Assembly: GCA_040776945.1 (NCBI GenBank)
Contig: JAXGZN010000002.1
Coordinates: 864,001-928,000, forward strand
Direction of reading: 5' to 3'
DNA: 64,000 bases
Source: Methanomassiliicoccaceae archaeon
GTDB taxonomy: Archaea > Thermoplasmatota > Thermoplasmata > Methanomassiliicoccales > Methanomassiliicoccaceae
The notes beneath the pieces were generated by a model. It was not told the DNA's origin and made no database searches. It saw only the letters and a list, made by a program, of their open reading frames with translations. Both the position numbers and the translations under genes were made by a program. Below, piece by piece: positions 1,847 to 20,239 of the stretch (position 1 is the first letter of the stretch; each line of letters opens with the position of its first letter).

Positions 1847-2186
1847 CCAACCATATCCAGGTGGGTCCATTTTTTTCAATCAGGGGCGGATTGGAACCTG
1901 GCTGCGTCTGGCTCGGTTTTCGGGGTATTATCGCCACCGTCCAAACACGCTGTGCTTCTGCGATCCTCTGCTCGTTCTTCTTGCGCGCGTTGTAAGTCTC
2001 GGTCGTCTTGCTCGTGGCGTGCCCCATCATCTTCGATGTCGAGTCTAGCGGCACCCCTTGGTCGAGGCGGTTCTGACCGAAGGTCCGGCGGCAGACCCGG
2101 AGGTCGAAGTCGACCCCGACCTCTTCCTTGACGATGGACTGGAGGTCCGTCGTCCCGTTGATCGAGAACTGCCCGCTATGCCGATT
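1812..2186 (-). pseudogene. Tyrosine recombinase/integrase C-terminal remnant overlapping the tRNA 3' half
   Basis: Manual translation gives ...VKEEVGVDFDLRVCRRTFGQNRLDQGVPLDSTSKMMGHATSKTTETY... (box II R, GH, catalytic-Tyr region). There is no N-terminal half, and the frame ends antisense inside the tRNA (VVRATGFEPVF). Confidence 0.8.
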
Positions 2187-3047
2187 CTAGCCATCTAAAT
2201 TCTTTAAAAACTGATTGACCAGTACATAGCTTTCAGCTTGTGTCCTCCTCTTCTGTTCCTCATCAGCACTATAAAGAAAATTGCCAACCCACGAAGGTCC
2301 TTCAGCCTCAATTGAACGGAACTTTTGCATAATATTTCCTATACCTATTCTCATACTTGGTTCAGCTAGGAATGGTCGGACAATTTGACTTACATCACTC
2401 GGGCTTTCCAAACATTGAGAGATTACCGTAAAAATATCGTAAGCGTCCTTCTCTTTATACCGCTCACCCAGAACTACACCCTTCATACCAATGCAGCCCG
2501 CGATATCAAGCATCTGTATCTGAGCGCTAGATTCACCATCGCCAGGAAGGGTTCCTTGAATCTCTTTTCTAAAGTTGTGCTGAAATGCGATGTCACATCC
2601 ATTTGCAATTCTCGCTGGAAGCGAAGGTTGAACCTTCCTATGTCTGTGATTATGCAATTCTTCTGTCCCACATGTGAGAAAATCAATAGAAATCAGATAT
2701 TCCCGTCCATCGGACCTGGAAGTAATTCCTCTCTCAAAACTGAATAAGATGGGTTGCCCATCCATCCCATGTCGCATCGAATAACCACGTTCCTGAATCA
2801 GGTCGATGATTGTGGCGTACTCATCGTTCCTTACTAATTCAGGGTTAACCGCAATGTCAATATCAATTGATCCAACATGAGGGAACCCCCCTCTGCCGAA
2901 TTCCTCTATCAGGAAAAACGGTGCCCAGCCTCCAACAAGCACTAGCGCATCCCTATAGGAGTATAATGTCAGAGATAACTCCAGGAGCGCAGATAAGGAT
3001 GCATCAGTTATGCCTCCACCATAGTCTGTAGATAACCTAGGTGGCAC
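2187..3047 (-). CDS. AbiEii-like / Pol-beta superfamily nucleotidyltransferase (type IV TA toxin)
   Basis: LVLVGGWA, HVGSIDID and late K...KDAYDI motifs; lies 2 nt downstream of the AbiEi-like gene. Confidence 0.75.
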   Translation of the reverse strand: MPPRLSTDYGGGITDASLSALLELSLTLYSYRDALVLVGGWAPFFLIEEFGRGGFPHVGSIDIDIAVNPELVRNDEYATIIDLIQERGYSMRHGMDGQPILFSFERGITSRSDGREYLISIDFLTCGTEELHNHRHRKVQPSLPARIANGCDIAFQHNFRKEIQGTLPGDGESSAQIQMLDIAGCIGMKGVVLGERYKEKDAYDIFTVISQCLESPSDVSQIVRPFLAEPSMRIGIGNIMQKFRSIEAEGPSWVGNFLYSADEEQKRRTQAESYVLVNQFLKNLDG

Positions 3048-3049
3048 TT

Positions 3050-4075
3050 CTAAACCCCCAAGATCTTTTCTCGGATGGCATCGGCCTGCTCCCTACCCCT
3101 TTGTGGGTAATTGAAAAGGTCCAGATAAAGTTGAAGATTGGACACAACTTTTACACCATCAATTGTTTGTGTGTTTCTTAATATTCCATCATCTCTGGGA
3201 GTTATCAAGTAGACGTTACCCCCGAACTCTACTGGCTCCAATTCAAGGGCGTTCTTCAATGCGTCATTTTTGTTAACATAAATGTATGTGTCCGTTGACC
3301 TAACCACAGGGAGGACCAGTCGAGCTGCAGCCCCTAGAGTGATCGCATAATCGCAATCAGGGAGTTGCCTCAGTTTTGGAAATATTTCATCGTAGCCCTT
3401 AAAAGGGGAGTAGTATCCAGTGATTTTTTGATCGTTATACCTATAGCTACTGACCAATAGATCTAGCAAGCCTGAAGGGTCGGAAAGCTTGATCGCTCCT
3501 CTCCTTTTATCAACATAATTATATGTCTCCAGGCCATCCAGAACCTTATAAACCTGAGCGAGACTAACTGATGAACTATCTGAAAGCTCCTGCATCGTCC
3601 ATTCCTTTTTCGGATCATTTAACATGCACCTTATTACCCAGTTACTTTTTGTAGATAACAAGTTTTTTTGCTTTCTCTCAATTTTATGTTTGTTATCATT
3701 TCCCCAGAGGTTGATAAAAATACTATCGAATTTTAAATAGGCATTTCCAGAAAGATCAATGCATCCAATATTGGATCTCTCACAAAATTCCTTCCCGCGC
3801 TCACTAATAAAGGGAGCGACCAGGATGGGGTAGAAATTGTCTGTAGACCTATTGCTCAATCTGCCGACATATTCCGCAATAACTCTGGGCTCTCCAGATG
3901 ATTTGAACTCAAGATATAGGGTTTTTTTCTTTTTTCCTATCCTCAAGTTGGCTACTGAGTCTGCATAGTCATCTCTTTCGAGTTTAACTTTATCGCTAAC
4001 CCACTCTAATTTTCCTACCTGAGACAACAACTTTTCAACAGTTTTCTTATACTCGATTTCTTCCATATTTTTCAC
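3050..4075 (-). CDS. AbiEi-like antitoxin / transcriptional regulator (DUF2186/AbiEi_2 type)
   Basis: N-terminal restriction-fold-like part (LYLEFK...VAPFIS...IDLSGNAYL), wHTH (WTMQELSDSSSVSLAQVYKVLDGL), C-terminal VSNLQLYLDL...RGREQA. Confidence 0.75.
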   Translation of the reverse strand: MKNMEEIEYKKTVEKLLSQVGKLEWVSDKVKLERDDYADSVANLRIGKKKKTLYLEFKSSGEPRVIAEYVGRLSNRSTDNFYPILVAPFISERGKEFCERSNIGCIDLSGNAYLKFDSIFINLWGNDNKHKIERKQKNLLSTKSNWVIRCMLNDPKKEWTMQELSDSSSVSLAQVYKVLDGLETYNYVDKRRGAIKLSDPSGLLDLLVSSYRYNDQKITGYYSPFKGYDEIFPKLRQLPDCDYAITLGAAARLVLPVVRSTDTYIYVNKNDALKNALELEPVEFGGNVYLITPRDDGILRNTQTIDGVKVVSNLQLYLDLFNYPQRGREQADAIREKILGV

Positions 4076-4079
4076 TTAT

Positions 4080-4142
4080 ATTGCTATTTTCACCAATTGG
4101 TAAAAAATCGTATAGGTTATAAAGTATATCAATTATAGCAAT
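4080..4142. promoter_or_regulatory. Inverted repeats in AbiE-like promoter (putative autoregulatory operator)
   Basis: Perfect palindrome ACCAATTGGT at 4092-4101 flanked by T/A runs; ATTGCTAT 4080-4087 and ATAGCAAT 4135-4142. Confidence 0.45.
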
Positions 4143-4242
4143 CGAAATTACTGCTACAAACACTACTTCTCCACGATATGCATGAAATGAGGAAAGGTGG
4201 TGAGCTAATTGCACCTTAGAGTTAGAGAAAAGTGAAGACGAT

Positions 4243-4857
4243 CTAGATGAGTGGGTTCGAACGCACAATCCTTTGAATGTCTGAAGCAAATTCAACCATG
4301 TCGCCAAAGTCAAGCAGCATGAACCCATCTTGGCACGATATCGCTTCCATTTTTTGTTCTGATTGCTCAAGGTCCGCCCGAGTGTACCTCTTAGATAGGA
4401 CTACAATTTTTTTATAAATGCCCTTATCGCGTTTCCAGACCTCTTCATTGAACGGACCGGAAATGATTGCATCTATGATATTGAGCAATCCTATGATTGA
4501 TCGGTTCCGCGATCTTCTGATAGCTTCCCATGAGTACCCAGAGAACACAATTATTGAGATTTCGCGCTTATGGAGTCTCTCGCACATGTGAAGGAGCGCT
4601 TCAGCCTGCTGGAACGGCTCACCGCCGGAGATTGTGACCCCTTCACATTGGGTCCTCTGACACAACTCGACCAGTTTATCTGCGAACATTGTATGCTCCA
4701 TGAGGTGCCTAGGCTCGTGAGGTTGGTAAGCCGGGTTCGCACAGCCTGTGCATCCAAGGGTGCAACCCTGAACCCAAACCACGACCCTCCTCCCCGGCCC
4801 ATTGATTGTGCTACCAGCCGCAAGGGCCGCCACATTGAGCAATGGTTCCAGTGCCAT
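4243..4857 (-). CDS. Small radical SAM protein, NrdG-like (4Fe-4S single cluster)
   Basis: NGPGRRVVVWVQGCTLGCTGC (CxxxCxxC), GVTISGGEPFQQ, FSGY, IDAIISGPF. Confidence 0.9.
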   Translation of the reverse strand: MALEPLLNVAALAAGSTINGPGRRVVVWVQGCTLGCTGCANPAYQPHEPRHLMEHTMFADKLVELCQRTQCEGVTISGGEPFQQAEALLHMCERLHKREISIIVFSGYSWEAIRRSRNRSIIGLLNIIDAIISGPFNEEVWKRDKGIYKKIVVLSKRYTRADLEQSEQKMEAISCQDGFMLLDFGDMVEFASDIQRIVRSNPLI

Positions 4858-4858
4858 C

Positions 4859-6715
4859 TCACTCCTCTAAGAGTTCGAAGACTATGCCTTTCCCATCCTC
4901 AACGCAGCTGGCCCTGATGCTTCGTCCCTTCATCAAGAACTGCTTGTTCTCGAATATGTATCTGGCCAGGGGGTCGATAAGGTCCCTCTCCGCCGCATTA
5001 AGCAACCCACGCCCACCGTGGGAGATGTCGGCCCTCTTCTCCAAGTAATCATACAGCCTTTGGTCGAGCACTAGTCTTACATCATACTTGGATTGGATCG
5101 TCTCCTGTAGGGGGGCCAGCTTCTTTTTGATAATTTCCCGCCTAAACTCCTCACTGTTGACGGGATTGAAGACGATGATGTTCTCCCCTATTCGGTTGAG
5201 GAGCTCAGGACGCCTTAGTTCCTTGTTGAAATGGTCCTTTACCTTGTGACGGAACTCTTTCTCCAGGTCGCAACCTTCCACCTCAATGCCAACCTCAGAG
5301 GCTCCGATATTGCTGGTGAATATGATGATCGTTTCGGAGAAGTAGGCGGTCACGCCCTTCCCATCGGTGAGCCTCCCATCCTCAAGGATCTGCAGGAACT
5401 TATCAAGGATTCGCGGATGGGCCTTCTCTATCTCGTCGAAGAGAAGCACGCTGAACGGTCTTTCCAGGACGGCGTTGATCAATTGCCCGCCTTCCTCAAA
5501 CCCAACATAGCCGGGCGGTGGGCCGATCAGACGCTGGTCGGATTCCTCATGACTGTACTCGCTCATGTCGAAGCGTATGCATGCGTTCTCATCTCCGAAC
5601 AAGAATTCCGCAGTGGCCTTGGCGAGCTCGGTCTTACCCACTCCGGTCGGACCGACGAAGAACAGGGCGCCTTTTGGCTTTGACATCTTCGAGGAGTGCT
5701 GTATTCCCGATAGGCCCATGGCTGCCTTGATGATGGTGTTGACCACGTGTTCGACGGCCTTGTCCTGTCCGACCACCCGCTTTTTCAGGGAAAGATCTGC
5801 GTTGCGTAGCTTCTCCTGAGAAAGCTCTTCCCAGGGCGACCTCTTCTCGCCAAAACGGTAGAGGTTAAGCAGTCTCTCCGGAGTAAGACCTCGGTTGTCC
5901 CGCGCCAGCCTGACCATCTGGATCAGATCTACGGTTTTCATCCCTTCAGTCATATCGGCCAGTTCATCCATCGCTTGGTCTCTTGTCTTGTCTTGAGTGG
6001 CCTTTAGGTTCAGGTCTTCTAGATGACGCTCAAAGAACCCTATCCTGGTCTTCTTCTCCGGGACTCCCAGGTTGAACAATTTGATCCTAGGGTCTGGCTG
6101 ATAGAACGAGGGCGGAATAGATGCTAGATTGGCTGTTATTAACATGATCGTAGCCGGAGGGGTGTCGGTCACGTTCCCTTGTCGGCCGAGACCCTCGCGC
6201 CCGCACATGAGCATCGATAACCGCTCCAACAAACAGCGGTCCTCTTGGGCCAGGGGCCTCTGTACCGCACCGAACTGGTAGTCGGTCCAATCCACTATTA
6301 TAGCCACGGCCTGATCATAATAGGGGAGGGCTTGTTCAAGGGCTCCGACCAGATCGCCGATTTCCTTGAGCGATGGGAGGTCATCGTCCAGGCCTTGAGG
6401 TTCACCCGCATCGTACTTTTCGCCCTCCACATCTTGTGTCAAGCTCCCTCTCCACCAAGTGTTGAACCTCCGTCTTTCATCATCGGACCGGAATTTTAGG
6501 CCGACAATGGGGTTCCAGACGCCCACCACAGAAAAGCCACTATCGTGTAAGGTCCTGTCGAGGTAGTGAGCCAGGAGCACATACCTAGTACCCTCGTCCG
6601 TTTTAATTGTGAACTCATCGCGAGTGTTTCCGTAGACAACAATCCCCTTCCTGAACCTGGCCTCCCTTGCCAAGTTCTCAAATTGCCGCTCCATTTTAGA
6701 AACGTCTCCTGCCAT
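4859..6715 (-). CDS. ClpB-like AAA+ ATPase (degenerate first AAA module, intact D2 module)
   Basis: VVGQ, GPTGVGKTELAK, RFDMSEY, GPPPGYVGFEEGGQL, LLFDEIEKAHP, GRLTDG, RPELLNRI. The N-half lacks canonical Walker motifs and a Clp N-domain. Confidence 0.9.
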   Translation of the reverse strand: MAGDVSKMERQFENLAREARFRKGIVVYGNTRDEFTIKTDEGTRYVLLAHYLDRTLHDSGFSVVGVWNPIVGLKFRSDDERRRFNTWWRGSLTQDVEGEKYDAGEPQGLDDDLPSLKEIGDLVGALEQALPYYDQAVAIIVDWTDYQFGAVQRPLAQEDRCLLERLSMLMCGREGLGRQGNVTDTPPATIMLITANLASIPPSFYQPDPRIKLFNLGVPEKKTRIGFFERHLEDLNLKATQDKTRDQAMDELADMTEGMKTVDLIQMVRLARDNRGLTPERLLNLYRFGEKRSPWEELSQEKLRNADLSLKKRVVGQDKAVEHVVNTIIKAAMGLSGIQHSSKMSKPKGALFFVGPTGVGKTELAKATAEFLFGDENACIRFDMSEYSHEESDQRLIGPPPGYVGFEEGGQLINAVLERPFSVLLFDEIEKAHPRILDKFLQILEDGRLTDGKGVTAYFSETIIIFTSNIGASEVGIEVEGCDLEKEFRHKVKDHFNKELRRPELLNRIGENIIVFNPVNSEEFRREIIKKKLAPLQETIQSKYDVRLVLDQRLYDYLEKRADISHGGRGLLNAAERDLIDPLARYIFENKQFLMKGRSIRASCVEDGKGIVFELLEE

Positions 6716-6718
6716 TGG

Positions 6719-7588
6719 TCATCGCCTCGCTTCTCTTACCTGCGCTGCGCCATGCGGCAGGTCCTTTGCTCCCTTCTTTATCTTGTAAGGATTGTGCCAG
6801 TTGAACTGCTCGATCTCCCCATCGGTGCCATCTGATCTGAGCCGCTCTAACACTGCATCCACAGCGTCCTTGCATGTTTCACCGATGAATCCATCTAAAT
6901 CGAAACCAATCCTGCACTGGTCGTTTATCTCGAACCTTACCTTCTTGCCGGCAGGCGTGGTCGCGAGGATTTCCACACGTCCATCCTTTAAAACCGGTCC
7001 GGAGATCACATAGTTGGAGGCGCGAAGGCCACCCAGCAATCGGCGGACAAGTTCCTTTCGGACCTCTTCCTGCAGGTCTCTCGCCTGAGACTCTCTTGCG
7101 CCGTTCAGGGTCTCCTCCACCATCGACTCAAGAGTGACCAACGACAATGGGACGTCCGTCATTTTTTCTAGCCGAGCGATATTACTTTGATGCGCCTTCT
7201 GGCCTTCCTTATTCTTGATGGAAATGGATTTTAGTTGGTTGATGGTCCTGGAAAGGAGCTCGTCCACTTTCCTTCGCTCCTCGCCCCACATTTGCTTCTT
7301 CGCCCTCGCCTCGGTCTGGATTGCGCTCACCTGAGCGATAGCGAGACGGGCGCTCTGTAGCGCTTGGTCTGGAGACAGAGACATCTGACTATACGCTTCA
7401 CCAACCAGCTTATCCAGCTCTGATGACTCACTAACAAAACCAGACGTGGAGAGGTTTTGCTTCCCTTGTTCCAAAAGTGCTGCCGTCCGTTCCAGTAAGG
7501 CCTGACACTCTTCCCTTACCTGGGACCTCCGAGCCTCTTCGCGCATCCTCTCCATTTGCTTTACGCTGATGTATCCCCCACCGCTCAT
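6719..7588 (-). CDS. Coiled-coil protein with C-terminal DUF2997-reminiscent motif
   Basis: Long helical E/Q/R/K-rich stretch, then FDLDGFIGETCKDAV; ATGA overlap with the upstream gene. Confidence 0.7.
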   Translation of the reverse strand: MSGGGYISVKQMERMREEARRSQVREECQALLERTAALLEQGKQNLSTSGFVSESSELDKLVGEAYSQMSLSPDQALQSARLAIAQVSAIQTEARAKKQMWGEERRKVDELLSRTINQLKSISIKNKEGQKAHQSNIARLEKMTDVPLSLVTLESMVEETLNGARESQARDLQEEVRKELVRRLLGGLRASNYVISGPVLKDGRVEILATTPAGKKVRFEINDQCRIGFDLDGFIGETCKDAVDAVLERLRSDGTDGEIEQFNWHNPYKIKKGAKDLPHGAAQVREARR

Positions 7589-10320
7589 GTTCTTCCCCCA
7601 ATCTTGCTGAAATCGCCGAGTTGAGGAATGATGACCTCGCCATCGACAATTGAGTACTTTATCAACCGAGAGGCCACCTTTGTCGCCATATCGGGGTGCT
7701 CCCTGAAATGGTCGCGATAAAGGTCGTTAGATAAAATATACATATTCTTGTCCAAGGCCATCTGGATCACGTGATGATCATCGTTCTGCCCGGACGGTGC
7801 CTGTATCAGATACTTTTTTCTTTCGTTAGAGAAGTACCTCTTCAGAGCTTCGAATTTCTTCTTGCCGGCTTTATCTTTAGTCAGGGTACTCTGAATGCTC
7901 GAACCGATGACGATGAAAACTTCATCACAGGAGTATTTGCCCAATAGCGCTTCGAAGGTCCTTATGACGTTTTCCACGCTAACAGAGCCATCATTCTCAT
8001 TGTAGCGGGCAATGTTGCTGCCGTCCACGACCACTCGAATCCCTGAGACTGGATTCTTGTTGGCATCCATCTTATTTGCCACGATTTTGTCCCAGACGCC
8101 GAGCGTGCGGAGATTTTTCTCGAATCGCTTTGGCTCCCGGACCGAAGTATCGAAGACGGAAACAATGTCGCTATCGGTTATCTTTACCCTCTCAGTAAGC
8201 GCGCTACGCCTGGCCGAGATGATGAAGGATAGCCAGAGTTCGACGTCTCGATCATCTTTCGGACTTAACGAGCGCGAAAGCTGAGTAAGGTGATTGCTTA
8301 GAATTGCGTCAGGCATCATCCCGGCTCTGTTGAGCTCCTCCAGGTTGTTCATCATGGTGGACAATTGCCGCTCGTTTAGTGGTTTGGGCAGCTCCCGTGG
8401 GGGCGACACCAGTGAACTTAGATCGATCTGAACTCCCATTCCGGTCAAGGCCTCATGAATCGAGCGTACCACGACCCTGGTTTCAGGATCTAGTATATCT
8501 AAGGGCTCCTCGAAAATGCGCTTGATTATGTTTGTAAGAGAGAGCTTATCGACCTCTGCTCCGAGCCTGTGCATCTGCACGCAGAGTTTCAGCGCTTCCT
8601 GGGCTTCCTTTCCACTAACTTCGACCTCGCTGATGACCTCACAAGCCTTGGAGGCAAGGAGCATCCTCTGATCGGGTGATTGTATCTTGGAAAGTTGTTC
8701 GACCACTTTTGGTCCCCACTTGATGTTGTCCCTAGAGGTCAAACCTAGAATGGATCCAGCTCTCAAAGAGACGATCAGCTGAACGTATCTATCCCATAAG
8801 GGAGATGAGGCGAAGATAGCACCCCTCTTCTCCAGCACCTCCACCTGCGCGGCCATTCGAGCATCGAACTTGGATTGCTCCTTCGGACGCTTCATCTCTA
8901 TGGAGGACAGGTACAGGTTTGAGTTACCCTTCACTACGCGTTCGGGCAAGGCAATCAATGAATCCCAATTGGCCATGTTCATGTAGCGTTCCCAAATGGC
9001 CAGCTCAGCTTTGGACATCTCTGCTGCGCCTCTAGATGGTTCCATCTTTATGAGGAGCCGTATGATGTCATCAAACTCGTCGTTCGACGGAGCAGAGGCA
9101 CTGATGGCCTCTAGGCACCTCGGCAGATTACTCTCGGAAGGATTGATTACCAACAGAGCTTGGGCCAAACCTTTGTTCATCGGAAGGCGAGACATGCTCA
9201 TGGCGATCTCTTTCTTTATGCTATCCGCTGCCTCTATCCCCTGCTCAGCAAAGACGGGGACGCCGAGACCCTCATCCTGCAGGCTCAGTGCACTAATCAC
9301 TTGTTTATCAGTGGCTAGGATAACTCTACCAGGTTGCTGTAGGTCCAGATGAATTATCTGCACATCATTCCTAGTCACTCCCTTGTCGCCTTCTGGAGTC
9401 TTCGACGGTACGAACACAGTCTTGGGCAATAAGGAAGGATGTTGCATCAGTATGCTCCAAGCCTCTCCGAACAGGGCGCACCATTGAGCGCCCCTTAGGT
9501 AATCGCCCAGGTTGACATTTCCGGCATGCTGGAGCTGACAATCGTCGGGTAGCTCACTGGAATAGGTTTGTCTCCATGATAGGCGTGGTTCAGCATCCCT
9601 CCTCAACGACAGGATGGCTTGTTGAAGCGCCCCATTCTCCCTTGCCACCTTTAGGACAGACTTATCAAGAGTGCTCCGATGATCATCACCCACTGGTGTG
9701 TCGCTGCTGCGGAAGATTACTTTACCTGGGATTAGTAGGATATCCCCTATGACCTGAAGTTTTATCTGAGCACAGGCGGTGGTCGCATTGCTGTAAACCT
9801 GCTCTCCTTTTTCCAGTATCTTGCAATTCTTCAGATGGTTGTAGATTATCCCAAGGGGCGGTTCCTCAACACCCGCGACCCATTCTTCCCCAATATCTCT
9901 ATTGTTTTTGAATATCCTTGAGCCGGCATACCACTCCTTGGTTCCCGGATCAAACAGTATGCTATCCTCCACAATCCTTGGATCACCTAGTATGCGACCT
10001 TTCTCGAACATCCCCCGTCCCTTATCAGTGACCCGATAGAATCCAGGTGTGGTGCGCTGGAGGGCACCAATATCCTCAAGTTGCTTGGCCGCCTCCATCA
10101 GGAATGTCTCATCACCAACTCCAAGTCTCGTAGCTATCTCGCTCACCGACGGAGATGGCTTGATTTTGACCAGCGGAGCCAGGATTGCCCATTCCAACAG
10201 ATTGACCTTTCGGTCTCTCCTGAGGTCAGCCTTGAAGTAAGCCTGAATAACGGGATGTTCGAATTTGGCACCCGCAATTATGGTAAAAGGAGTCCAAGCC
10301 ACACGCTTAGGCTTATCCAA
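7585..10320 (-). CDS. Large protein: N-terminal wHTH, helical middle, C-terminal Regnase/Zc3h12a-like NYN(PIN) ribonuclease
   Basis: VVVDGSNIA...NDDHHVI...ILSNDLYRD with acidic catalytic residues intact; N-terminal SVSEIATRLGV...YRVTDKGR winged helix. Confidence 0.8.
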   Translation of the reverse strand: MDKPKRVAWTPFTIIAGAKFEHPVIQAYFKADLRRDRKVNLLEWAILAPLVKIKPSPSVSEIATRLGVGDETFLMEAAKQLEDIGALQRTTPGFYRVTDKGRGMFEKGRILGDPRIVEDSILFDPGTKEWYAGSRIFKNNRDIGEEWVAGVEEPPLGIIYNHLKNCKILEKGEQVYSNATTACAQIKLQVIGDILLIPGKVIFRSSDTPVGDDHRSTLDKSVLKVARENGALQQAILSLRRDAEPRLSWRQTYSSELPDDCQLQHAGNVNLGDYLRGAQWCALFGEAWSILMQHPSLLPKTVFVPSKTPEGDKGVTRNDVQIIHLDLQQPGRVILATDKQVISALSLQDEGLGVPVFAEQGIEAADSIKKEIAMSMSRLPMNKGLAQALLVINPSESNLPRCLEAISASAPSNDEFDDIIRLLIKMEPSRGAAEMSKAELAIWERYMNMANWDSLIALPERVVKGNSNLYLSSIEMKRPKEQSKFDARMAAQVEVLEKRGAIFASSPLWDRYVQLIVSLRAGSILGLTSRDNIKWGPKVVEQLSKIQSPDQRMLLASKACEVISEVEVSGKEAQEALKLCVQMHRLGAEVDKLSLTNIIKRIFEEPLDILDPETRVVVRSIHEALTGMGVQIDLSSLVSPPRELPKPLNERQLSTMMNNLEELNRAGMMPDAILSNHLTQLSRSLSPKDDRDVELWLSFIISARRSALTERVKITDSDIVSVFDTSVREPKRFEKNLRTLGVWDKIVANKMDANKNPVSGIRVVVDGSNIARYNENDGSVSVENVIRTFEALLGKYSCDEVFIVIGSSIQSTLTKDKAGKKKFEALKRYFSNERKKYLIQAPSGQNDDHHVIQMALDKNMYILSNDLYRDHFREHPDMATKVASRLIKYSIVDGEVIIPQLGDFSKIGGRT

Positions 10321-13300
10321 GCTCCTCCCCCCTTACATAGCCATAGCCGCTCTCCCGCCGCTCGGCCATACCTATAATATCGCGGTAAGAGTAACGGTCC
10401 TCAGTCTGTCCATCGCAGCATATTTTAACCTTCACTTCTTCGAACGATTCCCTTGAGCCTACCACAAAGAGCAGCGTTCGGGCTCGAGAGATGGCGACAT
10501 TGATTCTCCGAAAATCTTTGACGAATTGCGTCACCCTTCCATTGGGGGGCGAGGAGACCAGGCTCGCGATTATGATGTCTCGTTCCATGCCCTGGAATCT
10601 GTCTACCGTCCCTACTCTCAGATCGAACCCCTGGAGCTTCTTCTCTTGCTTCAGTCGATTTACGAGGTCCCACAGCCTTCTCTCTTGGCCGGCGTAGAAG
10701 GAGATTATTCCTACTCCGATCGTTTTGTCCGTCGGTAATGAGGTCTTCTGGGCGCCCAATTGTCTCAATATGCGGCCAATCAGCTCTACCTCATAATCGT
10801 TGTATCTTGAACGGAAGCGGCCCTCTTCCTTGCCCTCAAAGTTACGGACGGGTTTACCGCCTATCATCCTATAGGACGATTCGACCCAAACTAGGTGGGC
10901 GTTCTTGGAAGCCAGTTCACCATGCTCGTTACGCAGAGAGAACTCGTTCTTGCGCTCGTTGTCAGGGTCTTTCAAACCCATTGTGAGCTTGTAACCGCTT
11001 GGATAAAACTGATTGATGGCGCCCATGATGGCTGTGTGCATCCTATACTGCTTTGTCAAGCGAGCCTTCAGTACATCCTCGGCTTGAGTGAACATTTCTT
11101 CAAAATATGATGTTGTCACCAGCTTCTCGTAACGCTTGAGCTTCTGATAAATCTCCTCGCTGCTCACGCTCTCATCGAAGGTCATTTCTTCTTCAGTGAG
11201 ACGGAACGAAGGCGGCAACTGGTGGTGGTCACCAACCAGTATGATCTGCTTGCCAACCAGCATAGGCATGAGCAGTTCTGGTGGGGTTGCTTTTGAGACC
11301 TCGTCGATGATCACCAGATCGAATTCTTTCTGGGAACCCCAGAACTTGTACTTTCCAGTCTCTGAACAGGTGGCCCCGACAATGTTGGATTGAGCCAGGT
11401 AGACTTTCCTGAGGCTTTCTCGGTCAATGTCATCGGTGGCTCCCAGCCTCTCCTTCCACTCCTTCTGGACCTCGTGCCATTCTTCCGAAAGCCCTGCTCC
11501 TTCCTTGAGCGTTTCAAGAGCGTGCCTGAGTCGCTGATGCCATGACAGGTCCCGATAGGAATCGTGGGGATGGGCGAGCTCGGTCTGCTCCTTTAGATGC
11601 TGTTCATATACTGCGGTTATCGACAGCAAGTGGGCAGCACGCTCCTTCTTCCAACCTTCCACCCTCTTTGCCAGTTCGCCTTCCTCGACCTCTGATATCA
11701 CAAGCACTTCTGAGGCGCGTTCCTTTTCCTTCAAGGCGCTTTCGAGCTCCTTTCTATCGGAATCCGCAATCGTTTCAAAACCGCCCTTAAGGCCAGTCAG
11801 ATGATTGCGCTGGGAGGGCGAGATAGTGAGGTCGAAAGTTTGTAGTTGTGTCAGAAGTGCTTTTAACTCTGCAAGGGCCGGCTCCAACTTGCGGTTCGGA
11901 CCGAGAGAGGATCGTAGTTCAGCTAAACGATGTTCTGATTCCTCTCCCCCCTGCAGATGATAGAGGTCGATGCAATCAATAAGAATTGGGTCAAGCGAGC
12001 GGAGATGATTGCGCCAGGCGTCGTTCACGGTACGATCATCTGCCCCCTTAAGGTCCAATAATTTCCGATTTATCTCACCCAGCTCTTTCTGTGCTGTTGA
12101 TACCTGGACACAGTTCTGATCGATCGCGTCTGCAATCAAATTTACGAGCACACGCTTCCTAGCATCTAGATCCTTTGCTTCCGCGGATTTGGTCTCGGCT
12201 AACGGAATGAGGGATGATAATGCCTGTACCTTGTCGATTGCAGTCGTAGCATGCTCCTTCAGCTCCATGTTCTTGACCAGGATGACTGGTAGCACATCCT
12301 TCACCCAAGTGGAGTCATCAGCATGCTTCCTGCCCAGCAAGCCAGAGCATAACGATTCTAGCAATCGCGGCTCCAACTCAGCCAGTCTTTGAATATCGCT
12401 GATACGTTGGGGGAGCCTGCCTTCTCTCACTAACCGGGATAGAAGTTCGACATTTCGCTCATCCAGTGCTACCTTTTCCTGAATTTTCAGTACCCTGTCC
12501 GATATGCTTTTCAAGTTTGATTTCTGTGCTTCGATTGCTTGGCTTGACACCTTTTGAGCCTGCACCATCCCCTTTTCCACTGGCAAGTTCTTTTCGATCC
12601 AATATGAGGCGACCTCAGCCGCTTTTATCTGGCGAATCAACTGACCTTGTGTCTCCACCGTCATAGTTAATGAGGATCTGACCCCAGTGAGCCAGTGCTG
12701 AACCACATTGGCTTCGACGAATGGCTCCCCGTCCTCAGTGATGTTTCTTTTAGGGCCAAGCCGGATTGGCCTCATGTTCACGGCGAACTCCTTCCTCCCC
12801 CCCATTAGCCTGCTGAGGGCGTTGTCGACGGCAAGGTTGGTTTGGGATGCAATGAGCACCCTGCCTCCCCTCTGGGTCACCTGATTGCAGAGTTCGGCGA
12901 TGACAGTGGTTTTTCCAGTCCCTGGAGGCCCCTGTATAAGGCAGAGATCGGGGGTGTTGATCGCTTTTTTGAGGGCCTCCATCTGGCCTTCGTTCAACCT
13001 ATCTTCAATGAGCGTCGATTTCTGAATGCCTTCGTCCCGCGTTGGTAGCCTTGCCTGCCCCACGTCGAATATGAAGTCCTCGAGGTGAGGGTTTGCCGAT
13101 TTTCCCTCCTTCAATCGATTTATGGCTTTTTGTTGAAGGGCTAGGGGCAGTTCGTCCAGGGCTACCGAATTAACCAGTAAGCCTGTAGCGGGCAACGCCA
13201 ATAGTTGGTCATCTCTCTTCTGCTCTTTGTCCTCCATCTCATCTAGCGCGAAGATAGGGTCAAGGTCGACTCGGATTATTGACTGGACATTATCACCATT

Positions 13301-14107
13301 CTTTGACTTGGAGGGAGGACGAGCTTTCTGTCCTGCCGCAATCTTACCCAAACGAATGGGCTCCCCGTCTTCCTCCGACCAGATCCAATTTCTACTTTCG
13401 GGGATGGCGTGGTCGAGGACGTAGACCTCGTCCTCACAACGGAACGCCTTATGGGAGTTTTCCGATCTGTTCTTCACCGATAACTCGATTTCCGCCGTGA
13501 CCGGTCCGGTCCTCACTAGATTTCCGTAAGCTATCCAAGCCCGCCGTCTTTGAACTACATCGAGGCTTTCATCGAGATATGCTTCCCAACTCTCGAGGCG
13601 CCTCTGAAGTTCATCTCGCCTCGGGGGAAGGGCGGTCAGGAAATCGATGTCAGAGGAGAACATGAATGAGTTATCTTCACCAGATTCAGACTCGAGGACC
13701 AGGACAGTGCATGTTATCAAGCCCTCCTTATCTGTGCTCGGCCTCTTTGACACGATGGAATAATACGCCTTTATTATGGTTAGACGACCGTTCGTTCTCA
13801 CACATTCGAAAACCAGGTCGTCCTCCATTCTCATGAAAGCCGAGTGGAGACTGCTCATCGGATCTAGACGGAATCGTAGTCGGCAGAACTTTTCATTCTT
13901 CTTCTCCCCCACGAAGATGTTTTCGACAAGGAAACGAGTTGAGGCGCCGTTAAGGGAGCGAAGTTTCTCCACTATCTCCTTTCCATCTTTTTGATCGACC
14001 TTTATCTTTTCTAGGTCCAATAACAGGACCAACCTTCTGGTCAATTCTCTCTGCCTGATCCCTTGATAATCTTGAGCTACATCTCCAAAGTCGATGATCG
14101 ACGCCAA
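10313..14107 (-). CDS. SF1 helicase, UPF1/DNA2/NAM7-like (AAA_11/AAA_12) with long coiled-coil insertion
   Basis: LNEGQ, QGPPGTGKTT, SQTNLAVDN, IIDEVSKA, VGDHHQLPP, QYRMH, GTVDRFQGMERD, RRINVAISRAR; TTG start after GGGGA. Confidence 0.92.
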   Translation of the reverse strand: MASIIDFGDVAQDYQGIRQRELTRRLVLLLDLEKIKVDQKDGKEIVEKLRSLNGASTRFLVENIFVGEKKNEKFCRLRFRLDPMSSLHSAFMRMEDDLVFECVRTNGRLTIIKAYYSIVSKRPSTDKEGLITCTVLVLESESGEDNSFMFSSDIDFLTALPPRRDELQRRLESWEAYLDESLDVVQRRRAWIAYGNLVRTGPVTAEIELSVKNRSENSHKAFRCEDEVYVLDHAIPESRNWIWSEEDGEPIRLGKIAAGQKARPPSKSKNGDNVQSIIRVDLDPIFALDEMEDKEQKRDDQLLALPATGLLVNSVALDELPLALQQKAINRLKEGKSANPHLEDFIFDVGQARLPTRDEGIQKSTLIEDRLNEGQMEALKKAINTPDLCLIQGPPGTGKTTVIAELCNQVTQRGGRVLIASQTNLAVDNALSRLMGGRKEFAVNMRPIRLGPKRNITEDGEPFVEANVVQHWLTGVRSSLTMTVETQGQLIRQIKAAEVASYWIEKNLPVEKGMVQAQKVSSQAIEAQKSNLKSISDRVLKIQEKVALDERNVELLSRLVREGRLPQRISDIQRLAELEPRLLESLCSGLLGRKHADDSTWVKDVLPVILVKNMELKEHATTAIDKVQALSSLIPLAETKSAEAKDLDARKRVLVNLIADAIDQNCVQVSTAQKELGEINRKLLDLKGADDRTVNDAWRNHLRSLDPILIDCIDLYHLQGGEESEHRLAELRSSLGPNRKLEPALAELKALLTQLQTFDLTISPSQRNHLTGLKGGFETIADSDRKELESALKEKERASEVLVISEVEEGELAKRVEGWKKERAAHLLSITAVYEQHLKEQTELAHPHDSYRDLSWHQRLRHALETLKEGAGLSEEWHEVQKEWKERLGATDDIDRESLRKVYLAQSNIVGATCSETGKYKFWGSQKEFDLVIIDEVSKATPPELLMPMLVGKQIILVGDHHQLPPSFRLTEEEMTFDESVSSEEIYQKLKRYEKLVTTSYFEEMFTQAEDVLKARLTKQYRMHTAIMGAINQFYPSGYKLTMGLKDPDNERKNEFSLRNEHGELASKNAHLVWVESSYRMIGGKPVRNFEGKEEGRFRSRYNDYEVELIGRILRQLGAQKTSLPTDKTIGVGIISFYAGQERRLWDLVNRLKQEKKLQGFDLRVGTVDRFQGMERDIIIASLVSSPPNGRVTQFVKDFRRINVAISRARTLLFVVGSRESFEEVKVKICCDGQTEDRYSYRDIIGMAERRESGYGYVRGEELG

Positions 14108-14529
14108 TTAATCCCCAATGAGGATAATTATACGACTATTAAAATAACTAAGCGACTCGTGTTTAAATTTAGGATTCTGAAGCATTGGTGGCACCAACGT
14201 CGATTCGCCTAGATGTGGTTATTAAGTTCCTAAATTATCGGTCTTGTTGCAAAAGTCATCTGACGAATTCTGAAGCCTATTTATCATTTATTATCCATAT
14301 CTCTATCAAAATATAATAGTGTGGTCCAACCTATTGCCAGTTGTTCAGAAAGACGATAGGTTGGTGACCACGATGACAGCAATTACGAGCGAAGTATTCA
14401 CCTATGTGATAAGTGCTCCCCGCGAAATAGTCGCGCGTTCATGCCAACCAACAGGGCCACGCTGATCGAATGTCATGAGCGCGATATGCCTCTCGCCCCC
14501 AAGCCCGTTCTTTTTGCAACGGCAACCCT

Positions 14530-14860
14530 TTAGCTATCCCTCGACCGATCGCTCCTGGGGAAGAGCGCCTGCGGGATCATCGACAGCATGTACGGATGCC
14601 TCAGCACGTACGACGGGCGGAGATAGAACGATACGTAGGCCTTGGCCAGCTTCCTCACCACCGCCTTGCGCCCGATGCCCATGCGGTCGCAGTCGATGAC
14701 CGGTTCCACGGCCGTGAAGCGGCTATAGTCCTCTGTCGACAGTGGATCATCGGCTCTCAGCTCGTCGAATATCAGCGTCCCCGGGAAGGGGCCAATGGAG
14801 GTGTCCTCGATCATTTCCGGCCCATGATCACGCCCGATGGGGAGACGGCAGCCGATCACG
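14530..14860 (-). pseudogene. C-terminal fragment of a B12-binding-type radical SAM enzyme
   Basis: PFPGT, YSRF and AYVSFYLRP motifs typical of these C-termini; no CxxxCxxC upstream. Confidence 0.55.
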
Positions 14861-15111
14861 ATGCTCGTTCGGCCAGCCATCGCCGACATGGCGAAAGGCA
14901 AGCGGCGGCGAACATCGCTCCGCTCAAAAGAGATATGCTACTTGCCGACCATATAGTGCCTGGCGTCAACGATCTGGTGCCTGACCGGGCGCAAGATCTT
15001 GTTCGAGCCGATGCAGCGGAACGGTCGTTAAGCATGACCGTTGTGGAAGCCGCGCCTTCCGATCGGAGATAGACGGTCCCGGACCTTCGATGGTCCTGAG
15101 GGTGATAGAGC

Positions 15112-15771
15112 ATGCGAGGCGAAAACGACCAGAAATGCCACTGGAACTCAACATATGAACGGTCGCAGGACTTCTTCGGCAAGGAGCCGAGCGAGCTGGC
15201 CGTCAGCGCGCTGCCGACGCTGAAGGACCATGGCGTGAGGACCGTCCTGGAGCTCGGCTGCGGACAGGGGCGGGACACCTGGTACTTCGCCAGGAACGGC
15301 ATGGCCGTCACCGCCCTGGACTACTCCGAAACCGGGGTCTGCCAGATGCGAGATGCCGTGGAGAGGGAGCGGCTGGACGATGTCGTAACGGTCATGGTAC
15401 ACGACGCCCGGGCCCCTCTTCCCTTCCCCGACAGCGCTTTCGATGCCGTCTACTCGCACATGTTCTTCACCATGGAGTTCTCCGAAGAGGAAGTATCCAG
15501 GATGCTGGGCGATTGCCGCAGGGTGCTGAGGCCCGGAGGACTGAACATATACTCGGTGCGCAACGACCACGATCCGCACTACGGCAAGTTCGAGCCTCGA
15601 GGCAAGGATATGTGGAAGAACCCCCTGGGCTTCGTGGTGCACTTCTTCACCGAGGAGAAGCTCCGCGAGCTCTCCGCCGGTTATGAGATATTGTGGATCA
15701 AGGAGTTCGATGAGCCTTCACCGGCGTACACGAAGAAGCTGTACGAGGTAGCGCTCCGAAGGCCCGGGTGA
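15112..15771 (+). CDS. Class I SAM-dependent methyltransferase
   Basis: VLELGCGQGRD, FDAVYS, LRPGG. Confidence 0.9.
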   Translation: MRGENDQKCHWNSTYERSQDFFGKEPSELAVSALPTLKDHGVRTVLELGCGQGRDTWYFARNGMAVTALDYSETGVCQMRDAVERERLDDVVTVMVHDARAPLPFPDSAFDAVYSHMFFTMEFSEEEVSRMLGDCRRVLRPGGLNIYSVRNDHDPHYGKFEPRGKDMWKNPLGFVVHFFTEEKLRELSAGYEILWIKEFDEPSPAYTKKLYEVALRRPG

Positions 15772-15774
15772 GCC

Positions 15775-16878
15775 TTGCATCTCGATAGGGAGCAGGAACT
15801 GTCGCTGGCCGGAGAACGGGGACCGGCGGCCGAATGGGCCATGGGAGTCCTGGTGAAGCTCGGCGATAGGGCGGGCTCTTCCAGGATGGTCCCGGTGAGC
15901 TCCGTGCATGTCCCCGGCTGGTGCGAGGCCGGTCCATCGGACGCCTGCAGGTGGCTGACCTCGTCCGCCGGTCAGGGCACCGTGCCGCTCACTGCCAACC
16001 CCGGAGGACCGGACGATGATGGCACCCGGGAGCGGAAGCAGGCATTGGAGAACTGGCGGTCGCGGCCCTGCTACTCGTTCACCTGCGCACCGTATCTTTC
16101 CGGGAACCGTCCTTCAAGAGGCCAGGTGATCGCGTGGGGAGGCCGCGCGGCCTCCGCTTTCGCCAACTCGATCATCGGCGCGAGGACCGAGGTGGAGAGC
16201 TTCGAGACCGCCCTGGCATCGGCCATTACCGGACTGACGCCGGAGCGGGGGCTCCACTTGGAGGAGAGGCGCCGGATGTCCGTCGCCGTCACCGTCAAAA
16301 AAGACCATGGCGGGAAGATCGACCACCCCTTGCTCGGCTGGAGAATATCTAGAGAGCTGGATGGCCGGACGCCCCTGCTGTGCGGGATATCGCCGACCTT
16401 CGACGAGGCCAAGAGGCTGGCCTTCGCCATAAACTCTCGGGCAGGCATCCCGCTCTTCGGAATAAGGCGGGAGGCCGCCCCTCCCGCCGGCACGGAGGCC
16501 GTGGAAGTGAGCTTGGATGACGAGATCCTCGACCGGCCGGAGAGACCGGACCTTGTAATCCTGGGATGCCCGCATTTGTCCGAGCAGGACATCAACCGAT
16601 GGTCCAAGAGACTGGCGGACAGGGTGCCGGGCAGGGCGGAGGTATGGTTCTTCACATCCCGCCTGTGCATGGACAAGTGCCCCACCTTCGGCGCTGTGCT
16701 GCGCAAGCGGGGCCGGGTGCTCGCCGACCAGTGCCCCCTGGGCCTGATCAGGGAGCTAGCGGGCAGGGTCGTGGCATGCGACAGTCCCTCGCTGGTCGAG
16801 TGCCTCCGGCGAAAGGGCGTGAGCGCGTCATATCTTGCCGAGGACGAGCTGGTCGCTCTTCTGGTCCGAAGGGACTAG
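15775..16878 (+). CDS. Aconitase X (DUF521) large-subunit-like protein, divergent
   Basis: MHLDREQE...GERG start, TCAPY, FANSIIGART, ITGLTP, LGCPHLS, DQCP. Confidence 0.75.
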   Translation: MHLDREQELSLAGERGPAAEWAMGVLVKLGDRAGSSRMVPVSSVHVPGWCEAGPSDACRWLTSSAGQGTVPLTANPGGPDDDGTRERKQALENWRSRPCYSFTCAPYLSGNRPSRGQVIAWGGRAASAFANSIIGARTEVESFETALASAITGLTPERGLHLEERRRMSVAVTVKKDHGGKIDHPLLGWRISRELDGRTPLLCGISPTFDEAKRLAFAINSRAGIPLFGIRREAAPPAGTEAVEVSLDDEILDRPERPDLVILGCPHLSEQDINRWSKRLADRVPGRAEVWFFTSRLCMDKCPTFGAVLRKRGRVLADQCPLGLIRELAGRVVACDSPSLVECLRRKGVSASYLAEDELVALLVRRD

Positions 16879-18548: not shown

Positions 18549-18959
18549 TCAACATGTAGAATGGAGTATGGCCACGTATCGGCGCGTCTCGGCATTCGCC
18601 AGCTCTATGGCCCTGGGGGTCGGAACTATCTTGACCTCGTAGCTGGCCAGTACCTGCTTGGCCCTTGGAGTGATCGGCATCATGCTCTTGAAGCCCGCGC
18701 CGATGATTATTACCTCCGGCCTCTCTGCCTCGAGGAATTCCAGCTCCCACTCCGCCAGAGGTATGTGGAAATAGTCGGTGGCATAGACCTGGTTCAATCT
18801 GGTCCTCTTCTCGGGCGGAGATCCATGGTACCTATCGGTGACGCTTCCATCAGCGTGGATGATAATGTCATGCCCGTACTTCAGGCCGTTTACCGTCAAT
18901 GAGCCGAAAAAACCATCGATCCGGGGGCGAGCGCTTTCTGCCACGGCAGATACCAACAT
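18549..18959 (-). CDS. Mth938/DUF498-like protein
   Basis: FGSLTVNG...DIII, PEVIIIGAG, PTPRAI, AILHSTC. Confidence 0.8.
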   Translation of the reverse strand: MLVSAVAESARPRIDGFFGSLTVNGLKYGHDIIIHADGSVTDRYHGSPPEKRTRLNQVYATDYFHIPLAEWELEFLEAERPEVIIIGAGFKSMMPITPRAKQVLASYEVKIVPTPRAIELANAETRRYVAILHSTC

Positions 18960-19117
18960 TGGTCTGCGTATAAAACATTGCTCCACTGGCGACCAAAGGA
19001 TGGCGAACGGCCTGCCAGGCCGTCCCCTGCGATGCATCCGGCATTTTCTCCATGGTTCAGGCGAAGCCGATATATGCTAGGGTGCTCCTACTGAGGCAAA
19101 AGGAGGGTCAAATCACC

Positions 19118-19765
19118 ATGGCCGATACGAACACAGGCATACCGCTGTTGGGGGACAAGTTTCCGGAGATGAACGTTCAAACAACCCACGGGACGATGTC
19201 CTTGCCCGGCGATCTGGCAGGGAAGTGGTTCGTGCTGTTCTCTCACCCGGGCGACTTCACTCCGGTCTGCACCACCGAGTTCTATGCTTTCGCCAAGAAG
19301 AACGAGGAGTTCAAGAAGCTGAACACCGAGCTCATCGGGCTTTCCATCGATCAGGTTCAATCCCACATAAAATGGGTGGAGTGGATCAACGACAACCTTC
19401 ACGTAAAGATCCCGTTCCCGGTCATCGCCGACGGGGTGGGAGTGGTCGCCATGAAGCTTGGGATGCTCCATCCTGGTAAGGGCTCCAACACCGTTCGCTC
19501 CGTGTTCATCGTCGATGACAAGGGGTTCGTCCGGCTGATGATCTACTATCCCCAGGAGATCGGCCGGAGCGTGGACGAGGTGCTCAGGGCGCTGAAGGCT
19601 CTGCAGATATCTGACAAGCACAACGTGGCCCTGCCCGAGAACTGGCCCCAGAACGAGCTGCTGAAAGACAGGGCGATCCTCAAGCCTGCCGCCGACGAGA
19701 AGACCGCCGAGGAGCGCAAGAAGCTCGACTGCTACGATTGGTGGTTCTGTCACAAGAAGCTCTGA
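19118..19765 (+). CDS. Peroxiredoxin (archaeal Prx6 type)
   Basis: [28 protein letters not shown]; GGAGG RBS. Confidence 0.95.
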
Positions 19766-20239
19766 GATCGATGCCGATCTCTAATCGAGGCCTCCTGGCC
19801 TCTCTTTCCTTTTCTTCATCTACAGTGTTCAAATGGTCCTGATGTTCCTCGAAGAGCGCTGCGAGAACACGATGGGGCCGATGTACCGTCCCTGCCAACA
19901 GACCGCCCGGACGCTCTCTCTGAAGAACTGCATTGAAGGTCAGGCGGCGAAGAGGTCCGTGGTCGCTCAACGTTCATCGAACCTGCACTAGGCCGATCCT
20001 GCCGAGCGACGGTCCGTCTGATTTGTTATCAGAGCGGATCACATATCGGCAAGGGCCGTTCTGGCACATCTTCATATATAGTCACGACCGCATATTATGG
20101 CTCATAGAGGACGACGCATGATGGGGGCTAAAACGCCCAAGTTTGAACGGGCGAAGAGAGCTTTGCGTAATGATCTCACTGGCTTTATCATCACCGACCG
20201 GCCGACAAGGGACCGGAAGGACCTTGATGCGGATAGGCG

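Follow-up and report, generated by a model that had tools for sequence, protein, structure and literature searches.

Mokosh combines a COG1112 helicase with a phospholipase D (PLD) nuclease and, in type I, its helicase MkoA contains a Ser/Thr kinase domain, according to the accessible parts of the preprint (Millman 2022). Dodola is a defence system with a ClpB-like ATPase, DolB. To our knowledge, prokaryotic viperins represent the one established use of a radical S-adenosylmethionine (SAM) enzyme in antiviral defence. In this study, we analyzed a stretch of 64,000 nucleotides (nt) from a Methanomassiliicoccaceae archaeon (contig JAXGZN010000002.1 of assembly GCA_040776945.1, positions 864,001 to 928,000; hereafter the window), for which an original prediction, made from the sequence, had proposed a new defence system of five genes, here named A to E. 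We found that these five genes are co-inherited across Archaea and Bacteria, and that A, C, D and E are conserved while B swaps its RNase domain. With a probability of roughly 60%, they constitute a mobile unit whose most likely role is to target RNA in defence or to act against mobile elements, a candidate reading well backed by conservation, modularity and mobility.

Gene order and distribution

The operon consists of the following genes:

Gene A, 10313-14107, minus strand, 1264 aa: Upf1/MkoA-like superfamily 1 (SF1) helicase (by Pfam and PADLOC)
Gene B, 7585-10320, minus strand, 911 aa: putative effector with a C-terminal NYN RNase domain (by Pfam and structural model)
Gene C, 6719-7588, minus strand, 289 aa: predicted coiled coil and small KA1-like domain (by structural model; matches no family)
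Gene D, 4859-6715, minus strand, 618 aa: pseudo-AAA domain and active ClpB-D2-type AAA+ domain
Gene E, 4243-4857, minus strand, 204 aa: NrdG/PflA-like (glycyl-radical-activase-like) radical SAM enzyme

The original prediction had described one coupled operon of five co-oriented open reading frames (ORFs) at 4243-14107, with overlaps of 8 nt (A/B) and 4 nt (B/C) and gaps of 3 nt (C/D) and 1 nt (D/E). The coordinates agreed exactly with this description, and the same genes were found together elsewhere.

The N-terminal domain of D proved to be a specific probe for loci of this type. Among 401 genomes of the host's phylum, some match to it was present in 32 and a full-length D-type protein in five besides the host; the remaining matches were weak, spanned only about 100 residues and lay in ORFs of approximately 700-1100 aa. 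All four full-length archaeal loci with sufficient room had the order A-B-C-D-E, and the fifth, on a contig of 2.8 kb, contained D and E. The same domain retrieved 11 plasmid records (six from Moellerella and five others), and the same order was observed in five of the six plasmid lineages inspected, namely Photobacterium, Acinetobacter, Moellerella, Polaromonas and Leisingera, in which the annotation reads 'AAA domain protein / PIN domain protein / hypothetical / AAA family ATPase / 4Fe-4S single cluster protein'. The gene set is not unique to this archaeon and is carried by bacterial plasmids as well. No D-like N-terminal domain was found in phage records.

A metagenome scan yielded 97 relatives, and 80 loci were kept. 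Among the loci with enough room, C was directly upstream of D in 74 of 74, E directly downstream of D in 68 of 68, and A further upstream of D in 41 of 41, and B could be detected by BLAST in 45 of 53. These counts overstate the independent support because most of the 80 loci are closely related. Phylogenetic trees of A (a quick version), D and E gave the same groups. Recurring in order in four archaeal genomes, five of the six plasmid lineages inspected and the metagenome loci, the gene set is more than a chance arrangement.

The genomic surroundings of the operon are as follows:

2001-15000: low-GC island holding the operon (by GC profile), beside tRNA-Gly(GCC)
1771-1846: tRNA-Gly(GCC), the single tRNA adjoining the island

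The GC content is 41-54% across this 13-kb island, compared with 57-65% in its flanks and the rest of the genome. The operon had been placed in a tRNA island, a description that holds for one tRNA-Gly(GCC) beside a low-GC stretch but goes no further, as the tRNA is single and neither an integrase on the island nor an attachment-site (att)-like direct repeat of the tRNA end was found. Gene B was not found in any of the 10 same-genus genomes searched, and the plasmid copies of the operon sit among insertion sequence (IS) elements, integrases, restriction-modification fragments, ArdA and toxin-antitoxin genes. Judging from the low-GC island, the lack of a B match in the 10 congeners and the plasmid copies, the operon is horizontally mobile. 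The host genome is 2.17 Mb in size, and its small-subunit rRNA scored 1503 bits with the archaeal model versus 1098 bits with the bacterial model.

The stretch was present in sludge and digester metagenomes of 11 studies, and all five genes were covered at no less than 99% identity by metatranscriptome contigs from four runs. As these are assembled contigs alone, they give a weak hint that the operon is transcribed. The depth of the metatranscriptome contigs was 0.2-0.9 at 14025-14525, just upstream of A, versus 2-8 on either side, and several contigs stop at around 14060-14100, not far from where A begins. Both features are compatible with a transcript start, although contigs cannot prove one. 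A promoter and terminator scan with bacterial models, whose reach does not extend to archaeal promoters, gave no more sites than shuffled sequences.

The five proteins

The claim that all catalytic motifs are intact was borne out by a motif check of the window proteins A, B, D and E, and the motifs were kept in all 10 cassettes compared (the window and nine others).

Protein A matched the Pfam families AAA_11 (2.5e-44) and AAA_12 (2.6e-35), and the PADLOC model for MkoA (PDLC03920) at 3e-109 over aa 164-1250; A of Photobacterium scored 8e-93 against MkoA. Its motifs include GPPGTGKT at 393, VIIDEV at 932 and GDHHQLPP at 959, and Walker A, motif III and motif VI were kept in 10 of 10 cassettes. 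A long insertion separates helicase motifs I and II, and neither a family for the N-terminal 370 aa nor a kinase family anywhere in A was recognized by Pfam. The NCBIfam model 'PLuB system helicase-like' matched A with 164 bits (cut-off 999), and no paper on a PLuB system was found in the literature. Between the window and the nine other cassettes, the helicase core is 31-40% identical.

Protein B matched RNase_Zc3h12a (NYN) at aa 762-899 (7.4e-13; 48.9 bits, cut-off 23). It carries the motif DGSN at 766, and D766, D847/D848 and D866 are invariant across four close homologues. In its AlphaFold model (pLDDT 82.3), an N-terminal beta-hairpin/winged helix-turn-helix (wHTH)-like region is followed by a beta-rich region, approximately 390 aa of helical repeats and the C-terminal NYN domain (aa 760-902). 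The top Foldseek matches of the whole protein were PRORP1/2 (E 1e-7), with a template modelling (TM) score of 0.12-0.14 by query and a root-mean-square deviation above 20 Å, and the NYN domain matched the nuclease domains of ZC3H12/Regnase/KHNYN (TMt 0.64-0.71, identity 22-24%). A CCCH zinc finger was not detected, as no zinc-finger family matched and the protein ends about 10 residues past the NYN domain, and no pentatricopeptide repeat (PPR) motif was recognizable by Pfam.

Close full-length relatives of B formed only four clusters in 5.8 billion proteins. Scans of genome contigs with B alone and with an alignment of four sequences, as well as an alignment scan of metagenome contigs, revealed no relative, and there was no BLAST-alignable identity between B of the window and the corresponding proteins of the nine other cassettes. 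An exhaustive profile search gave 10 full-length relatives of B, and their C-terminal end was NYN in eight, PIN_4 in one and of no family in one. The two plasmid B proteins scanned have a PIN_4 head (9e-22 in Photobacterium and 5e-22 in Moellerella). In other archaeal and metagenome B proteins, an RNxxxH motif is accompanied by matches to DUF4145 or HepT-like (HEPN-type) families; one of these matches exceeds the threshold and most fall below it. Of nine metagenome B proteins scanned, five matched no family. As judged by these family matches, B is the variable part of the system, with a constant position and a predicted RNase domain exchanged among NYN, PIN_4 and HEPN/DUF4145-like types. Effectors of modular defence systems hold a constant position and have swapped catalytic domains. 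Since the catalytic domain is exchanged while A, C, D and E are retained, the RNase is the best effector candidate, in agreement with the original prediction. The same prediction had taken a Regnase-type RNase as a mark of the system; the NYN domain is indeed present in B of the window, but it is one of several interchangeable heads and lacks the CCCH finger.

Two other architectures with NYN were observed, the first of them in the exhaustive search. P0051 (1547 aa) joins a PD-(D/E)XK nuclease, an SF1 helicase and a C-terminal NYN RNase in one polypeptide, and in P0085 a BrxC/D-like ATPase N-terminus is joined to NYN. NYN is thus recruited to several helicase or ATPase conflict proteins.

Protein C matched no family in Pfam, PADLOC or NCBIfam, had no sequence relatives in the PDB and gave nothing at E <=1e-3 with Foldseek. 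Its model (pLDDT 78.5) contains long helices (aa 9-190), a domain of four strands plus a helix (aa 194-252) and a disordered tail. With VIA-align, aa 173-258 resembled KA1/AMPK-alpha-CTD-type domains and the KA1-like region of METTL16 (Z 8.4-10.2); the KA1-like character of this modelled domain is a fold resemblance only. An [FY]xGxxC loop and, in the disordered tail, a WxNP motif were kept in 10 of 10 cassettes, among which the identity of C to the window protein is 20-32%. Close relatives of C, like those of B, formed only four clusters in 5.8 billion proteins. As the four clusters of each lie on contigs of four matching sizes, B and C are co-located, and a homologue of D is also encoded on the most distant of these four contigs. 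In the ESM Atlas, C-like clusters have 66-174 members, which are mostly bacterial and all named 'hypothetical protein'. An assignment of C to DUF2997 was dropped, since only two of eight C homologues matched, at 0.004 or weaker.

Protein D matched AAA_2 (9e-50) and ClpB_D2-small (4.3e-5) of Pfam. GPTGVGKT (Walker A) at 355, DEIEK (Walker B) and the pore loop GYVG at 402 were kept in 10 of 10 cassettes, and the full-length identity between the window and the other nine is 40-43%. By alignment, the first ~300 aa form a degenerate AAA-like domain without a P-loop, in which 'YGNxRD' takes the place of Walker A and 'ILDW[ST]E' that of Walker B. The match to the ClpB family TIGR03346 (276.9 bits, cut-off 1232) covers D2 only (aligned to positions 552-842). 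The earlier description of D as a ClpB-like ATPase fits its D2 half, but not its N-terminal half, which is a pseudo-AAA domain without Walker A. PADLOC models PDC-M37B (2.6e-32) and DolB (4.7e-22) matched the AAA core alone (aa 290-475).

Protein E matched Fer4_12 (1.5e-28) and Radical_SAM (1.3e-7) of Pfam. Its best curated families were NrdG (TIGR02491; 1.7e-23, 83.2 bits, below the cut-off of 126.1) and PFLA (1.2e-14, 54.3 bits, below the cut-off of 231.75), and QueE families matched at 5.7e-5. E contains CTLGCTGC (CxxxCxxC) at 32 and the SAM motif GGEP at 78; both, as well as a GPxxR before the cluster, which resembles the DGxGxR motif of glycyl-radical activases, were kept in 10 of 10 cassettes. 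The E proteins of the cassettes are 185-227 aa long and 29-40% identical to that of the window. E of the window had no hit in PADLOC, pVip included, and a bacterial E matched the pVip models weakly (4e-8 and 7e-8). The possibility that E is the housekeeping NrdG of the host was rejected, as its operon context is conserved, including on plasmids, and NrdD lies about 217 kb away.

Possible function and alternative explanations

Here we infer both a function in defence and the part that the radical SAM enzyme plays. The Mokosh/Upf1-like helicase A would sense, engage or translocate on foreign RNA or RNA-DNA intermediates, and B would grip RNA with its helical repeats in a PRORP-like manner and cut it with its NYN, PIN or HEPN head. 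C, D and E would form a control module, in which D, as a hexameric ClpB-D2-type unfoldase, might thread or remodel a protein partner through its GYVG pore, and C could be an adaptor or a substrate by means of its coiled coil, KA1-like domain and disordered WxNP tail. The nearest relatives of E abstract hydrogen from a protein glycine. E itself may modify a protein of the complex; its favoured target would be the invariant [FY]xGxxC loop of C, with the WxNP tail as a docking site. The C-D-E module would then arm or release the RNase only upon infection (or keep B off until then), a putative gating that the original prediction had put forward as well, and invader RNA would be degraded or the infection would be abortive. 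That a radical SAM enzyme, an AAA+ unfoldase and a coiled-coil/KA1-like protein switch an immune RNase by radical chemistry on a protein is a tentative proposal, and one that we consider rather unlikely in this complete form.

If it were true, radical protein chemistry would be a new principle of immune control, conserved between methanogen-like archaea and the plasmids of proteobacteria and linked with a Upf1/MOV10-like helicase, a helicase type that recalls both eukaryotic RNA surveillance and Mokosh. If the operon is protective, it would represent a defence system that is rare yet widespread and built from unusual parts, among them interchangeable RNase heads and a minimal radical SAM enzyme most closely related to enzymes that place radicals on proteins. 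It would offer a tractable setting for the role of ClpB-like ATPases in defence (e.g., in Dodola), and one in which to ask whether radical protein chemistry can be an immune switch. As bacterial plasmid versions exist, these questions are testable in ordinary laboratory hosts.

Several observations weigh against an RNA-targeting defence system under radical control. A recognizable glycyl-radical domain (Gly_radical/NRDD) is absent from the cassette by Pfam, and the glycyl-radical family PF01228 was not found in the host genome; the [FY]xGxxC loop of C is invariant but distinct from the known glycyl-radical motif. Several hosts of the plasmid copies are aerobes, and a glycyl radical is hard to reconcile with such hosts. 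Between the B types, homology of the N-terminal regions is weak (hhalign probability of 62% at E 7e-5 and of 19% at E 1e-3). The sixth plasmid, from the cyanobacterium Geminocystis, lacks A and B and carries other genes in their place along with C-, D- and E-like genes, suggesting that the C-D-E trio can work with other partners. Among the 80 metagenome loci, 68 are closest to one type, and the Argonaute-like/RNase III neighbours noted at two loci (see below) recur in none.

The Geminocystis plasmid would also suit an arrangement of two adjacent but independent systems, a Mokosh-like A+B pair and a separate C-D-E module. Helicase-NYN fusions such as P0051 occur alone elsewhere, and PADLOC assigns A and D to different systems. 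However, A was found in all 41 metagenome loci with room upstream of D, the order and the tight spacing or overlaps are alike in 10 cassettes, and the trees of A, D and E are congruent. We regard two separate systems as quite improbable. We think it still less probable that the operon serves no immunity and is a maintenance or addiction module of plasmids and islands, or a mobile system for RNA quality control or stress. Conjugative as well as non-mobilizable plasmids carry copies of it in the vicinity of replication and partition genes, an RNase restrained by an unfoldase recalls toxin-antitoxin logic, and the lack of a known phenotype agrees with such a role. On the other hand, defence operons typically have this size and composition (sensor helicase, swappable nuclease and ATPases), the closest match of the helicase is the validated defence protein family MkoA, and the distribution is patchy and strain-specific.

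Another explanation moves the chemistry of E from a protein to a nucleotide or RNA: E would make a viperin-like chain terminator or an RNA mark, C and D would regulate E, and B would cut unmarked RNA or act independently. Viperin makes chain terminators and small QueE enzymes act on small molecules; the weak pVip matches of a bacterial E and the QueE match both count in its favour, as do the missing glycyl-radical domain in cassette and genome and the aerobic hosts among the carriers. However, the best family matches of E are the protein activases NrdG and PFLA, the pre-cluster GPxxR is kept throughout the 10 cassettes, and viperins are longer than E, with a nucleotide-binding extension at their C-terminus. 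We regard a nucleotide- or RNA-modifying E as unlikely.

Flanking genes and comparison with known systems

Just downstream of the operon lies a further candidate feature:

2187-4075, minus strand: candidate AbiE-like pair, encoding proteins of 341 aa and 286 aa

An AbiE-like module had been predicted beside the operon. The 341-aa protein matched AbiEi_2 with 20.2 bits, under the cut-off of 21, and a TrmB-like helix-turn-helix matched it too, but its 286-aa partner had no family and no PDB relative, and a GSxDxD-like stretch in it was seen by eye only. These two genes may form an AbiE-like pair. On the other side of the operon, a methyltransferase ORF (15112-16878, plus strand) matched the selenoprotein family MduS at 1.5e-72, below the cut-off. 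This ORF ends at TGA, and the frame is open for 368 codons further into an AcnX-like region; the TGA could be a selenocysteine codon, or the region a chance in-frame neighbour.

Other copies of the operon have neighbours of their own. In one archaeal locus (L021, 4895-7934, minus strand), a gene with an RNase III domain (256 aa) overlaps a gene with a Piwi domain (758 aa) by 8 nt, and these RNase III/Piwi genes (Argonaute-like, pAgo) lie directly downstream of the E homologue on the cassette strand. pAgo and RNase III were rejected as parts of the system, since they recur in 0 of 80 metagenome loci, and are considered island neighbours. Another archaeal locus (L018) has an RNase III and RNase_T exonuclease fusion upstream of the cassette (18768-19823, minus strand), and two DDE transposases and a 1004-aa PHP-domain protein downstream of it (4279-7847). 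On the Acinetobacter plasmid (L024, 14706-16688), the cassette is directly followed on the same strand by genes for a 173-aa AAA ATPase and a 328-aa radical SAM protein and by a small hypothetical gene, and at the Photobacterium locus two genes for radical SAM proteins lie upstream on the opposite strand. The E-, C- and D-like genes of the Geminocystis plasmid (L028, 565-11929) are separated by around five unannotated genes and a toxin-antitoxin pair of the HigB type.

With PADLOC 2.0.0 as the defence catalogue, only two parts of the operon were recognized, namely A, as MkoA, and in D the AAA core, as PDC-M37B or DolB; nothing was recognized in B, C or E of the window. As the original prediction had expected, no complete catalogued system was found for the window or for the Photobacterium cassette. 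No description of the gene combination was found in the full-text literature, a search that did not cover supplementary tables (e.g., Millman 2022, Tables S8-S24), PADLOC system definitions or newer catalogues; in the accessible parts of PMC7159879, PMC4158269, PMC10853773, PMC12988326 and PMC11291487, the five-gene set is not the subject.

The likeness to Mokosh and Dodola noted in the original prediction stands for the MkoA match of A and the DolB match of the D core, but it is partial, as the partner proteins are not matched. Like type I Mokosh, the operon has a COG1112/Upf1-like SF1 helicase paired with a separate nuclease gene. However, neither the PLD family nor MkoB matched any of the five proteins (Pfam and PADLOC) or the Photobacterium cassette, A lacks the kinase that the accessible parts of the preprint give for type I (Millman 2022), the nuclease is predicted to be an NYN, PIN or HEPN RNase, and there are three extra conserved genes, C, D and E. 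As the PLD partner and the kinase are absent, the operon is not Mokosh and is Mokosh-like only in its helicase.

D shares its ClpB-D2-type AAA+ core with DolB of Dodola and PDC-M37B of PDC-M37. In both cases, the match is confined to this core, the other component (DolA or PDC-M37A) had no match among the five proteins, and D carries a pseudo-AAA N-terminal domain of its own. Compared with ClpB/Hsp104, which has two active AAA+ rings, ClpN and a coiled-coil M domain, D matches D2 only. B resembles PRORP in its predicted layout of helical repeats followed by NYN, but has no Pfam-recognizable PPR and superposes poorly over the whole length. Its C-terminus shares with Regnase/ZC3H12/KHNYN the NYN fold with the acidic residues in place, whereas the CCCH zinc finger of Regnase/ZC3H12 is lacking and sister systems carry PIN_4 or HEPN-like domains instead.

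In the catalogue and literature searched, the C-D-E module has no described counterpart. E is similar to the NrdG/PflA activases in its CxxxCxxC and GGEP motifs, small size and best family matches, but it scores under their curated cut-offs, no glycyl-radical protein is encoded beside it, and the operon also occurs in aerobes. A bacterial E scores weakly against the pVip models of prokaryotic viperins; in contrast to viperins, E is far shorter and is always accompanied by an AAA+ unfoldase and C.

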